Source of the DNA: Escherichia coli
GTDB lineage: Bacteria; Pseudomonadota; Gammaproteobacteria; Enterobacterales; Enterobacteriaceae
Assembly (NCBI RefSeq): GCF_003018235.1
Contig: NZ_CP027437.1
Strand: one strand, 5' to 3'
DNA: 64,000 nucleotides
Under the pieces are notes generated by a model that worked only from the letters and a program-made list of their open reading frames with translations, was not told where the DNA came from and ran no database searches. Of this stretch, positions 54,511-57,790 are shown one piece after another. The position numbers and the translations under genes were made by a program. Numbering within the stretch: the stretch's first letter is position 1; every line of letters begins with the position of its first letter.

Positions 54511-54603
54511 TTTCTGACGGGCAGAAAGCCGTCGCCCGTACTGATCATACATACCAAAACCTGGCGCTGACGCCGGGTTTACTGGCATGAAGGGAAAATC
54601 ATT

Positions 54604-55854
54604 ATGGATATAATGAGAAGTGTTGTGGGGATGGTGGTGTTACTGGCAATAGCATTTTTGTTGTCAGTGAATAAAAAGAGCATCAGTTTGCGCACGGTTG
54701 GAGCCGCGCTGCTGCTACAAATCGCCATTGGCGGCATCATGCTCTATTTTCCACCAGGAAAATGGGCGGTAGAGCAGGCGGCATTAGGCGTTCATAAAGT
54801 GATGTCTTATAGTGATGCCGGTAGTGCCTTTATTTTTGGTTCATTGGTCGGGCCGAAAATGGATGTCCTGTTTGATGGCGCGGGCTTTATCTTCGCCTTT
54901 CGCGTACTCCCGGCGATTATCTTCGTCACTGCGCTCATCAGCCTGCTGTACTAAATTGGCGTGATGGGGCTGCTAATCCGCATTCTTGGCAGTATTTTTC
55001 AGAAAGCCCTCAACATCAGCAAAATCGAATCTTTTGTTGCGGTTACCACTATTTTCCTCGGGCAAAATGAGATCCCGGCGATCGTTAAACCGTTTATCGA
55101 TCGCATGAATCGCAACGAGTTGTTTACCGCAATTTGTAGCGGGATGGCGTCCATTGCTGGTTCGATGATGATTGGTTATGCCGGAATGGGCGTACCAATT
55201 GACTACCTGTTAGCGGCATCGCTGATGGCGATCCCTGGTGGTATTTTGTTTGCACGTATTCTTAGCCCAGCCACCGAGCCTTCGCAGGTGACATTTGAAA
55301 ATCTGTCGTTCAGCGAAACGCCGCCAAAAAGCTTTATCGAAGCGGCGGCGAGCGGTGCGATGACCGGGCTGAAAATCGCCGCTGGTGTAGCGACGGTGGT
55401 AATGGCGTTTGTCGCAATTATTGCGCTGATCAACGGCATTATCGGCGGAATTGGCGGCTGGTTTGGTTTCGCCAATGCCTCTCTGGAAAGTATTTTTGGC
55501 TATGTGCTGGCACCGCTGGCGTGGATCATGGGTGTGGACTGGAGTGATGCCAACCTTGCGGGTAGCCTGATTGGGCAGAAACTGGCGATTAACGAATTTG
55601 TCGCTTACCTGAGTTTCTCCCCATACCTGCAAACGGGCGGCACGCTGGAAGTGAAAACCGTGGCGATTATCTCCTTTGCGCTTTGTGGTTTTGCTAACTT
55701 TGGTTCTATCGGTGTTGTCGTTGGGGCGTTTTCGGCTATTTCGCCAAAACGTGCTCCAGAAATCGCCCAGCTTGGTTTACGGGCGCTGGCAGCAGCAACG
55801 CTTTCCAACCTGATGAGCGCGACCATTGCCGGGTTCTTTATTGGTTTAGCTTGA
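54604..55854 (+). pseudogene. psuT: NupC-family nucleoside transporter PsuT/YeiM interrupted by an in-frame TAA stop after codon 116
   Basis: ORFs 54604-54954 and 54961-55854 are in the same frame and together align end-to-end with the intact paralog at 57791-59041; TAC TAA ATT where the paralog has TAC TAC ATC. Confidence 0.8.
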
Positions 55855-55921
55855 GTTTCATTGCCGGATGTACGCGCTTATTAAGTGTTGCATCCGGCAA
55901 TCGCGCTATTGCAAATAATTT

Positions 55922-56581
55922 TTACTGCATCATCCCGGAGAATTTATTCTCCGGGTCCATCTCCAGCGCCAGTCCTGACAACTGCTTTCTGTTTTTAATT
56001 AGATACCCTTTCTTGCTTTTAATTAATAAACCGTCGTGAATGAATTGCGCGAGAACATATAAAAGATGTCGATAAGAAACGCCTAAATACTCTGCCGCTT
56101 GCGTATGCTTTTCGTGATAAAGATCACCTTCCTGCGAGAGTAATATAAATGCTGCCAGGCGATTCACTAACGGAAATGATTGATTCTGAGTTAAAGAAAC
56201 AATATTACGGTAATTTTTATGACTTAAGGTGACGCAGAGTTTTCGTAAAAATAGCGTGTCGTTTAATAACACCGGGCGGTAATGTTTCATAGGGAGCGCA
56301 AGGCACCAACACTCTTCAATAGCCTGCACCGCACGCGGTTCATGGTCTTTGTCGATTAACTCAATCTCGCCAATAAAACAGGGAGCGGCAAAGAAATCGA
56401 TCAGCGACACGCGACCATTAGCAAGCGTGGCGTAAAGCCTGGCGCGGCCTCGCGTCAGGTAAAACAGCCAGGACGGCTGTTGCCCTTCCTGCACAATGTA
56501 GTCACGCGCTAAAAAATGAAACAGCCGCGTATCGGCTGAAACATCCGTTGAAAAGCAATCCTTAAACGCGGATTCACTCAT
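55922..56581 (-). CDS. yeiL: CRP/FNR-family transcriptional regulator YeiL (about 219 aa)
   Basis: Start moved to [10 protein letters not shown]; cNMP-binding-like domain plus C-terminal HTH. Confidence 0.88.
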
Positions 56582-56749
56582 CAATTGCTGCTTAAGATCA
56601 TTATTGTGGATTTCTTTCACGATGTTTATCCGCTATGAGATTTCTCATATTTAGCATACGTACGCTGTTGTTAAGATTCAATCATCGGCCCGGTCGAATT
56701 TTCTTTGCTGTAGAAAAAATAACGCAACTGGAAACAGAGGAAATAAACA

Positions 56750-57691
56750 ATGGAAAAGAGAAAAATTATTCTGGATTGTGATCCGGGTTATGATGATGCT
56801 ATTGCAATGATGATGGCAGCGAAACATCCGGCAATAGATTTATTAGGCATCACCATTGTGGCGGGTAATCAGACGCTTGATAAAACATTAATTAATGGCC
56901 TGAATGTTTGCCAGAAACTGGAGATTAATGTTCCGGTTTATGCGGGGATGCCACAGCCCATTATGCGTCAACAAATCGTTGCCGATAATATTCACGGTGA
57001 AACCGGACTTGATGGCCCGGTATTCGGGCCGCTGACCCGCCAGGCAGAAAGCACTCATGCGGTGAAATATATCATCGATACCCTGATGGCAAGTGATGGC
57101 GATATCACTCTGGTGCCGGTTGGTCCACTTTCAAACATCGCGGTGGCAATGCGTATGCAACCCGCGATCCTGCCGAAAATCCGTGAAATTGTGCTGATGG
57201 GCGGCGCTTACGGTACTGGCAACTTTACGCCATCCGCCGAGTTCAACATCTTTGCTGACCCGGAAGCCGCACGCGTGGTGTTCACCTCCGGCGTTCCATT
57301 AGTGATGATGGGCCTCGATCTCACCAACCAGACCGTTTGCACCCCGGACGTGATTGCACGGATGGAAAGGGCAGGCGGCCCCGCCGGAGAGCTGTTCAGT
57401 GACATCATGAACTTCACTCTCAAAACGCAGTTCGAAAACTACGGCCTTGCTGGCGGCCCGGTGCATGACGCCACCTGCATCGGTTATCTGATTAACCCTG
57501 ATGGCATTAAAACCCAGGAGATGTACGTCGAAGTGGACGTCAACAGTGGACCTTGCTATGGGCGTACTGTCTGCGACGAGCTGGGCGTTCTTGGCAAGCC
57601 CGCTAATACCAAAGTCGGCATCACTATTGATACCGACTGGTTCTGGGGATTAGTCGAAGAGTGCGTGCGCGGCTATATCAAAACCCATTAA
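56750..57691 (+). CDS. rihB: Pyrimidine-specific ribonucleoside hydrolase RihB/YeiK (313 aa)
   Basis: N-terminal DCDPGYDDA nucleoside hydrolase motif. Confidence 0.93.
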
Positions 57692-57790
57692 GTGTTGATA
57701 ACAAGCCGGGTCAGTATCGCAAGATGCAGGCCCGGCTATTTCTGATGGGCAGAAAGCCGTCGCCCAAAATGACATGAAGAGATAATAACT

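Follow-up and report, generated by a model that had tools for sequence, protein, structure and literature searches.

Escherichia coli scavenges pseudouridine and pyrimidine nucleosides through routes encoded by the psuKGT and rihB-nupX operons. Both operons lie on the 64,000-nucleotide (nt) stretch of contig NZ_CP027437.1 (assembly GCF_003018235.1) analyzed here, henceforth termed the window. On the + strand, psuK (52643-53584), psuG (53572-54510) and psuT (54604-55854) are followed by rihB (56750-57691) and nupX (57791-59041; 416 amino acids), psuT and nupX being paralogous genes for CNT-family transporters. On the - strand, yeiL (55922-56620) separates the two operons, and yeiI (59097-60185), which encodes a PfkB-type kinase with an N-terminal helix-turn-helix domain, lies beyond nupX. 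These genes were assigned from the list of open reading frames (ORFs) and from RefSeq annotation of the locus in two other strains. The spacers upstream of the two transporter genes share a short motif that a preliminary description of this DNA had proposed to function in cis, whether as a regulator site or as a structure in the RNA leader. Here, we describe this motif as the E. coli form of an RNA hairpin conserved across Enterobacteriaceae, and tentatively suggest that the hairpin sets the transporter gene apart from the enzyme gene preceding it.

The 27-nt motif, TTTCTGAYGGGCAGAAAGCCGTCGCCC, occurs on the + strand exactly where it had been placed, at 54511-54537 and 57739-57765, with a single C/T difference between the copies (26/27 identical within E. 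coli). By the ORF list and by RefSeq annotation of the same locus, these sites are the psuG-psuT spacer and the rihB-nupX spacer. The window contains no third match even with up to three mismatches (shuffled sequence is expected to give 0.00). In complete E. coli genomes, a 32-nt query around the nupX copy was present in 5,424 of 5,426, at a median of 2 and a maximum of 3 places, located at psuT and nupX. A median of two copies per genome puts the motif outside the dispersed repeat families, and with two matches in the 64-kb window it does not qualify as a REP/BIME, ERIC or box C element. Homology between the psuT and nupX leaders starts at the motif. The sequences further upstream are unrelated, being the end of psuG in one case and, in the other, a GC-rich hairpin after rihB (57704-57737, + strand; AGCCGGG...CCCGGCT, then ATTTCT; predicted as the minimum free energy (MFE) fold) that lies immediately 5' of the nupX copy. 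As judged from this boundary, the motif, and hence the hairpin described below, marks the 5' edge of a leader that was copied along with the transporter gene in the duplication that gave rise to psuT and nupX.

Further downstream, the start regions are similar, as the preliminary description had noted (CATGAAGGGAAAATCATTATGGAT versus CATGAAGAGATAATAACTATGGAT); in psuT, the ribosome-binding and start region shared with nupX spans 54585-54606 (+ strand) and reads CATGAAGGGAAAATCATTATG. The description erred in placing the motif about 65 bp upstream of both start codons: counted from the motif end, the distance is 66 nt to the psuT ATG at 54604 but only 25 nt to the nupX ATG at 57791, because the psuT leader has an additional 41-nt block with a GC-rich hairpin. 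Its 27-nt frame also misses the conserved unit at both ends. The first six nucleotides, TTTCTG (54511-54516 in the psuT copy, + strand), occur in both E. coli copies but are Escherichia-specific in character, this 5' flank being unconserved beyond Escherichia and Citrobacter, and the hairpin extends 2 nt past the 3' end of the motif.

The unit that is conserved is a 23-nt hairpin, here named HP1, with a 6-bp G+C-rich stem and an 11-nt loop of consensus AGNNNGSNGUC. The psuT copy (54517-54539, + strand) starts 6 nt past the psuG stop codon and pairs ACGGGC with GCCCGT around the loop AGAAAGCCGTC; it is predicted as the centroid structure, with an MFE of -11.1 kcal/mol. The nupX copy (57745-57767, + strand) carries the loop AGAAAGCCGTC on the stem (A)TGGGC/GCCCA(A), which amounts to five pairs in the window strain compared with six (ATGGGC/GCCCAT) in a divergent E. 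coli strain, our locus L001. Both the window strain and a K-12-like strain have a nupX leader about 12 nt shorter than that of L001 (GCCCATAACGGGATCAGACCTGACATG). This deletion (57766-57790 compared with L001 2964-3000) cost HP1 its outermost pair and left the hairpin 25 nt from the ATG. For every HP1, the MFE fold is the HP1 stem (-8 to -12 kcal/mol). Additional pairs within the loop are predicted in two registers, in which G16 takes C25 or U24 as its partner and N17 takes U24 or G23.

Individual strains show changes at these genes. In the window strain, psuT has an in-frame TAA at 54952-54954 (codon 117), where K-12-like and other E. coli have TAC, and is therefore a pseudogene; its entries in the ORF list are split (54604-54954 and 54961-55854), and the leader hairpin is intact. 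In E. coli VG38-53E1 (L211 3655-3720), nupX is cut to a 66-nt stub annotated as an incomplete coding sequence, and the remaining HP1 copy has two additional changes (a TTTATGA flank and the loop AGAGAG), which may reflect relaxed constraint after the loss of nupX.

For comparison across genera, we listed 22 psuT and nupX leaders, obtained by a protein-guided scan of species-representative genomes (L001-L008) and by exact-protein look-ups of homologs (L201-L210). HP1 is present in 19 of the 22, in about 11 genera and in both paralogs. It precedes psuT in Escherichia, Citrobacter, Leclercia/Enterobacter, Kluyvera and K. michiganensis, and nupX in E. coli, Salmonella, Buttiauxella, Kluyvera, K. 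spallanzanii, Superficieibacter, Entomohabitans and Dryocola. This is the recurrence at a conserved position in orthologous and paralogous leaders, above the neutral level, that characterizes leader hairpins in general. Genomes with a single paralog retain the hairpin as well, namely Citrobacter (C. freundii has PsuT only; PMC11241209), Salmonella, Buttiauxella and K. michiganensis. A covariance model of HP1 found no copies beyond psuT and nupX leaders in 91 sources totaling 769 kb; its best additional match (L065, 20.6 bits) is marginal and lies within a coding region. A metagenome scan with the pattern GGCAGNNNGCNGTCGCCNG, which proved overly loose, gave about 120 chance matches in G+C-rich coding sequence, most of them without a stem.

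The stem-pairing figures and the mean pairwise identities given below are based on an ungapped alignment of 17 sequences (A2). Standard pairs occupy 95.1% of stem cells, compared with 33-53% after a shift of the 3' partner by 1-3 columns. Compensatory changes occur at three of the six stem pairs (AU/GC/GU, CG/UA/UG and GC/AU), which gives HP1 the second general mark of a leader hairpin, a stem with compensatory substitutions on the transcribed strand. The covariation score was reached by 0 of 500 column shuffles, and RNAalifold returned the same helix. The outer pairs can be followed along a wobble path from ACGGGC/GCCCGT through ATGGGC/GCCCGT (Kluyvera nupX) to ATGGGC/GCCCAT (Salmonella, Buttiauxella and E. 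coli nupX), with GTGGGC/GCCCGT found in E. albertii and one E. coli lineage (L211); G·U or U·G intermediates are found in E. albertii, Kluyvera nupX, Dryocola and E. coli L211. Since G·U pairs form on the + strand only, the selected molecule is the sense transcript. The RNA structure and covariance analysis that the preliminary description had recommended, carried out on leaders of several genera, hence returned a stem that covaries and wobbles that pair in the sense strand only. We regard this support for base pairing as good but not overwhelming.

The same substitutions bear on the DNA-level half of the original proposal. The hairpin sequence is, after all, an inverted repeat (YGGGC-N11-GCCCR) that could be bound by a dimeric factor and serve an internal promoter for the transporter gene, and the locus is flanked by the regulator-like genes yeiL, divergent from rihB, and yeiI, convergent with nupX, whose products YeiL or YeiI would be candidates. 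A protein-bound palindrome should keep its half-sites and let its spacer drift, yet here the outer half-site bases covary and 7 of the 11 spacer bases are conserved. In terms of DNA symmetry, moreover, the wobble intermediates are A·C mismatches, and the half-site centers lie 17 bp apart. No sigma-70-like promoter (-35/-10 at 16-18 nt spacing) was found near either leader on the + strand between 54300 and 58000. We therefore consider a DNA operator highly improbable; of the two options raised in the preliminary description, the evidence supports the RNA structure.

Constraint within the leaders is position-specific. The stem has a mean pairwise identity of 0.80 and the seven constrained loop positions one of 0.88, compared with 0.41 at the four free loop positions, 0.37 in the 5' flank and 0.39 in the 3' flank. 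For reference, four-fold degenerate sites are 0.47 identical between E. coli psuT and nupX and 0.40-0.54 identical between orthologs of different genera. Within the loop, G20, G23 and U24 never vary, and G16 and C21 hardly do. The cross-species comparison of leaders called for at the outset thus confines conservation to the stem and seven loop positions, with flanks that have diverged like four-fold sites. Taken together, the comparative evidence shows HP1 to be a sense-strand RNA hairpin under purifying selection in both paralog lineages across Enterobacteriaceae.

Near-identity of the two E. coli copies, the observation from which a functional element had originally been proposed, is a less faithful guide to this constraint. 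Over 31 columns comprising HP1 and its 5' flank, E. coli nupX matches E. coli psuT at 28 positions and the nupX of Salmonella or Buttiauxella at only 25; E. coli psuT matches Citrobacter psuT at 22 and Kluyvera psuT at 19, and the two Kluyvera paralogs match each other at 19. The E. coli copies are closer to each other than to their orthologs, which points to a short homogenized patch in Escherichia. This indicates that their near-identity at the motif is partly an Escherichia-specific product of concerted evolution; alternatively, both copies may track a shared factor. The identity of 26/27 is inflated by homogenization and is hence an unfair measure of constraint on the non-coding sequence.

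Homogenization raises the further question of whether the motif has any function of its own, or is a relic of the duplication whose copies gene conversion between the paralogs has kept similar. Conversion does occur in this gene pair: besides the excess of matches between the E. coli copies (28/31, compared with 19-25/31 between either copy and its orthologs), the psuT and nupX genes of Entomohabitans (L205 2709-3959 and 6001-7251) have a four-fold identity of 0.66, compared with about 0.47 in E. coli and Kluyvera, which indicates wider conversion across the coding sequences of that lineage. The preliminary description had named, as the finding that would overturn it, a recent conversion tract that also covers neutral flanking sequence. 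A short homogenized patch is indeed real in Escherichia, but neutral sites alongside it have diverged, with four-fold identities of 0.30-0.48 in the first 52 codons, and the leader 3' of HP1 differs by the 41-nt insertion or deletion. As genomes with a single paralog keep HP1 and neutral flanks have diverged, conversion alone is insufficient; the single-paralog genomes largely refute it, and neither compensatory changes nor position-specific conservation are products of conversion. We accordingly hold the absence of any own function to be improbable.

The surroundings of HP1 come in two forms. A long-form leader precedes all psuT orthologs and the nupX of K. spallanzanii, and its consensus order in a further alignment (A3) is HP1, a C/A-rich linker, a second hairpin (HP2), the Shine-Dalgarno region and an AU-rich stem at the start codon. 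In the window, the linker of psuT (54540-54559, + strand) reads ACTGATCATACATACCAAAA, with the consensus ATATCARRCATACCAAAA over genera and paralogs. HP2 (54556-54580, + strand; AAAA-CCTGGCG-ctga-CGCCGGG-TTT) is a GC-rich hairpin with a short U run within the 41-nt psuT block; its consensus is AAACCUGGCG/CGCCGGGUUU with only 3-4 U afterwards, and A3 has nine pairs, one of which changes from U·G to C-G. Short-form leaders are those of nupX in E. coli, Salmonella, Buttiauxella and Kluyvera, which look like products of a deletion between the direct repeats flanking HP2 (CCTGGC...CTGGC). The start-codon stem of psuT, HP3 (54599-54616, + strand; TCATTAT-GGAT-ATAATGA), has seven near-invariant pairs and could limit translation initiation, although its 3' half is under coding constraint. 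It also covers a second in-frame AUG at codon 4 and recurs in nearly all leaders of psuT and nupX. In E. coli nupX, a species-specific stem (ATGACAT/ATGTCAT, 57769-57801, + strand; in both the MFE and the centroid fold) encloses the Shine-Dalgarno sequence and the ATG. A small leader ORF (ATG AAG ...) was rejected as a conserved feature, as its ATG is missing from K. spallanzanii and from Leclercia psuT.

The arrangement of the long form, with HP1 16-21 nt 5' of a GC hairpin with a U run, would suit an operator hairpin read by a trans-acting RNA-binding regulator, more probably a protein than a small RNA (sRNA). In long-form leaders, nucleoside availability would act through such a regulator on either HP2 read-through or transporter translation. 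The loop, in which discontinuous invariant bases stand beside freely varying ones, is typical of loops that proteins read, and the E. coli copies share even their free loop bases, as expected if one factor fits both. HP1 and HP2 do not overlap, however, which makes classical antiterminator competition impossible, and inspection by eye found no conserved complementarity for an alternative HP1-HP2 pairing. Further difficulties are that most nupX leaders lack HP2, that two lineages have swapped HP1 for unrelated hairpins and that the Kluyvera paralogs differ at 4 of 11 loop bases. We know of no candidate factor that binds HP1. On balance, an operator hairpin appears unlikely, though it deserves serious consideration.

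HP1 and its C/A-rich tail could also be taken for a tiny H-type pseudoknot riboswitch, similar in outline to preQ1-I, that senses pseudouridine or a pyrimidine nucleoside or base. The gene context of nucleoside catabolism and transport would fit, and segments able to pair exist: loop AGAAA of E. coli is complementary to UUUCU in the 5' flank, CUGACU of Superficieibacter is complementary to AGUCAG, and in many leaders loop GGU could pair with linker ACC. The first of these helices, which as TTTCTG-N5-CAGAAA is perfect in E. coli and was examined both as a pseudoknot and as a DNA palindrome, was rejected, as across genera it is paired in only 60% of cells and barely exceeds slid controls (37-52%); it is absent from Leclercia, Salmonella, Kluyvera, Dryocola and K. 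michiganensis. The pairing between loop and linker comprises 2-4 bp and is broken in Escherichia and Leclercia (C22), and its bases are invariant, so that covariation is not possible. The tail itself is rearranged or deleted in short-form leaders. Rfam 15, including its riboswitch models, gave no match over either leader at E <= 10 (searched over 52000-60000 of the window) and none in the psuT and nupX leaders of six further loci at E <= 1. We see only a very slim chance that HP1 is such a riboswitch. A resemblance of GCGGTCGCCCG to the RfaH ops element, GGCGGTAGCGTG, was likewise set aside: agreement is limited to some 8 of 12 positions and does not include the 3' TG, and the operons are of the wrong type, so we take the likeness to be coincidental.

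Leaders that lack HP1 are informative about its role. Leclercia nupX and Entomohabitans psuT have unrelated, much stronger hairpins in its place (-18 and -25 kcal/mol). In the clade of Yersinia and Serratia, to which 'Klebsiella sp. BIGb0407' also belongs, the transporter shares about 71% identity with NupX (homologs of this clade's transporter were also found in Hafnia), and the operon consists of a yeiI-like kinase gene, psuG and psuT. In this clade, a conserved long hairpin distinct from HP1, CCUGAAAGG...CCUUUCAGG, occupies the psuG-psuT spacer; its inner part is variable (L213 2920-2975 in Yersinia, L214 2868-2915 in Serratia, and L007 2924-2972). No Rfam family matches this hairpin, which may represent another uncurated structured element in the corresponding position. 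Since unrelated hairpins replace HP1, the recurring feature is a stable structure between the enzyme and transporter cistrons, and the replacements in two lineages favor a structure-based role.

Two side observations concern the neighborhood of these operons. The yeiI gene adjoins nupX or psuT in Enterobacteriaceae, and in Yersinia (L213 815-1933) and Serratia (L214 763-1881) it is the first gene of the psuG-psuT operon in psuK's stead, which suggests that its product combines the functions of a pseudouridine kinase and a regulator. In 'Klebsiella sp. BIGb0407', a near-threshold match to the Rfam family isrN, an Hfq-binding sRNA, lies about 2.7 kb upstream of the transporter gene (L007 167-266; 40.3 bits compared with a gathering score of 44).

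With slightly less than even confidence, we read the motif as the E. coli form of HP1 and HP1 as an intercistronic post-transcriptional element that sets the transporter apart from the enzyme gene, a reading drawn from sequence comparison. HP1 would act in the polycistronic mRNAs psuK-psuG-psuT and rihB-nupX, where it would determine the processing or stability of the transporter cistron, and hence its translation yield, independently of the catabolic enzyme gene upstream. In the ancestral long form, it would work together with the C/A-rich linker, which may provide an accessible single-stranded segment, and with HP2, which would either stop transcription in part or protect the transporter segment from its 5' side. 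The bases conserved in the loop might structure the large loop through the predicted extra pairs, or be read by an RNA-binding factor.

Several observations weigh against an intercistronic role of this kind. The Term-seq supplement of PMC7815308 lists no RNA end in either leader: psuT, psuG and rihB are absent from it, and its sole nupX entry is antisense; the psuKGT and rihB-nupX operons are poorly expressed in the laboratory. The position of HP1 varies, with 25 to 66 nt separating it from the start codon and 6 to 47 nt from the stop codon upstream, so that neither occlusion nor coupling, nor any other single geometric mechanism, would account for both genes. HP2 was not called by a terminator scan, as it is followed by fewer than 5 T, and E. 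coli nupX is among the many nupX leaders that lack it. The covariation derives from 17 related sequences and mainly from the two outer pairs, the four inner pairs being near-invariant. A purely structural role would not obviously require the invariant G20, G23 and U24, and the replacement of the hairpin in two lineages contradicts a factor-binding role. A bolder version, in which HP1 and its C/A-rich tail form the core of a regulatory RNA class that is new and unusually small and gates CNT-family transporters in Enterobacteriaceae separately from the enzymes of the same operon, either as a nucleoside or pseudouridine sensor or as the operator of an RNA-binding regulator, seems doubtful to us.

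A literature search found neither the motif sequence nor these leaders described, and it yielded no data on expression, RNA ends or binding for them. HP1 is thus a new, narrowly distributed candidate for a cis-regulatory RNA and an uncurated structured element for the non-coding inventory of E. coli. As a covarying hairpin that has accompanied the transporter genes since their duplication, it offers a concrete, cheaply mutated handle on transporter control. Should it prove to be only a stability or processing hairpin, HP1 would be another ordinary case of discoordinate operon expression. Control of these pathways has been a target of selection: mutations in the psuK promoter were repeatedly selected during colonization of the mouse gut by E. 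coli (PMC9509342).

HP1 shares some traits with several known types of element. Like intrinsic terminators, it has a G+C-rich stem just 3' of a gene; it differs from them in its 11-nt loop (GCCCGUACUGAU) and in lacking a U run, its 3' flanks being ACTGATCA and AAATGACA. The terminator scan, which allows loops of 3-8 nt, did not call it. With preQ1-I riboswitches it has in common a stem of 5-6 bp, a loop of 11-12 nt and a 3' tail rich in A and C, a short stretch of which is complementary to the loop. Covariation does not support a second helix, however, its tail is longer and partly deleted in many leaders, and no Rfam model matches it. Protein-binding leader hairpins and antiterminator targets, such as the RAT elements of BglG and SacY, the dual hexaloops recognized by ANTAR proteins and boxB of phage lambda, are likewise small hairpins with conserved loop bases and, in the long-form leaders, the likeness extends to the position 5' of a GC-rich hairpin and U run. 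The size and sequence of the HP1 loop match none of them, and HP1 neither overlaps the downstream hairpin nor forms a tandem pair of hexaloops. Intercistronic hairpins that stabilize or direct the processing of mRNA segments include the REP sequence between malE and malF, the papB-papA processing region and the stem-loops of the Rhodobacter puf operon. HP1 resembles these in being a stem-loop between an upstream gene for a soluble protein and a downstream gene of the same operon, in having its position taken by unrelated hairpins in other lineages and in the discoordinate expression to be expected. What sets it apart from them is that it occurs in two copies per genome rather than as a dispersed REP, that a short stem carries a large loop of conserved sequence and that it has travelled with its downstream gene through a duplication.

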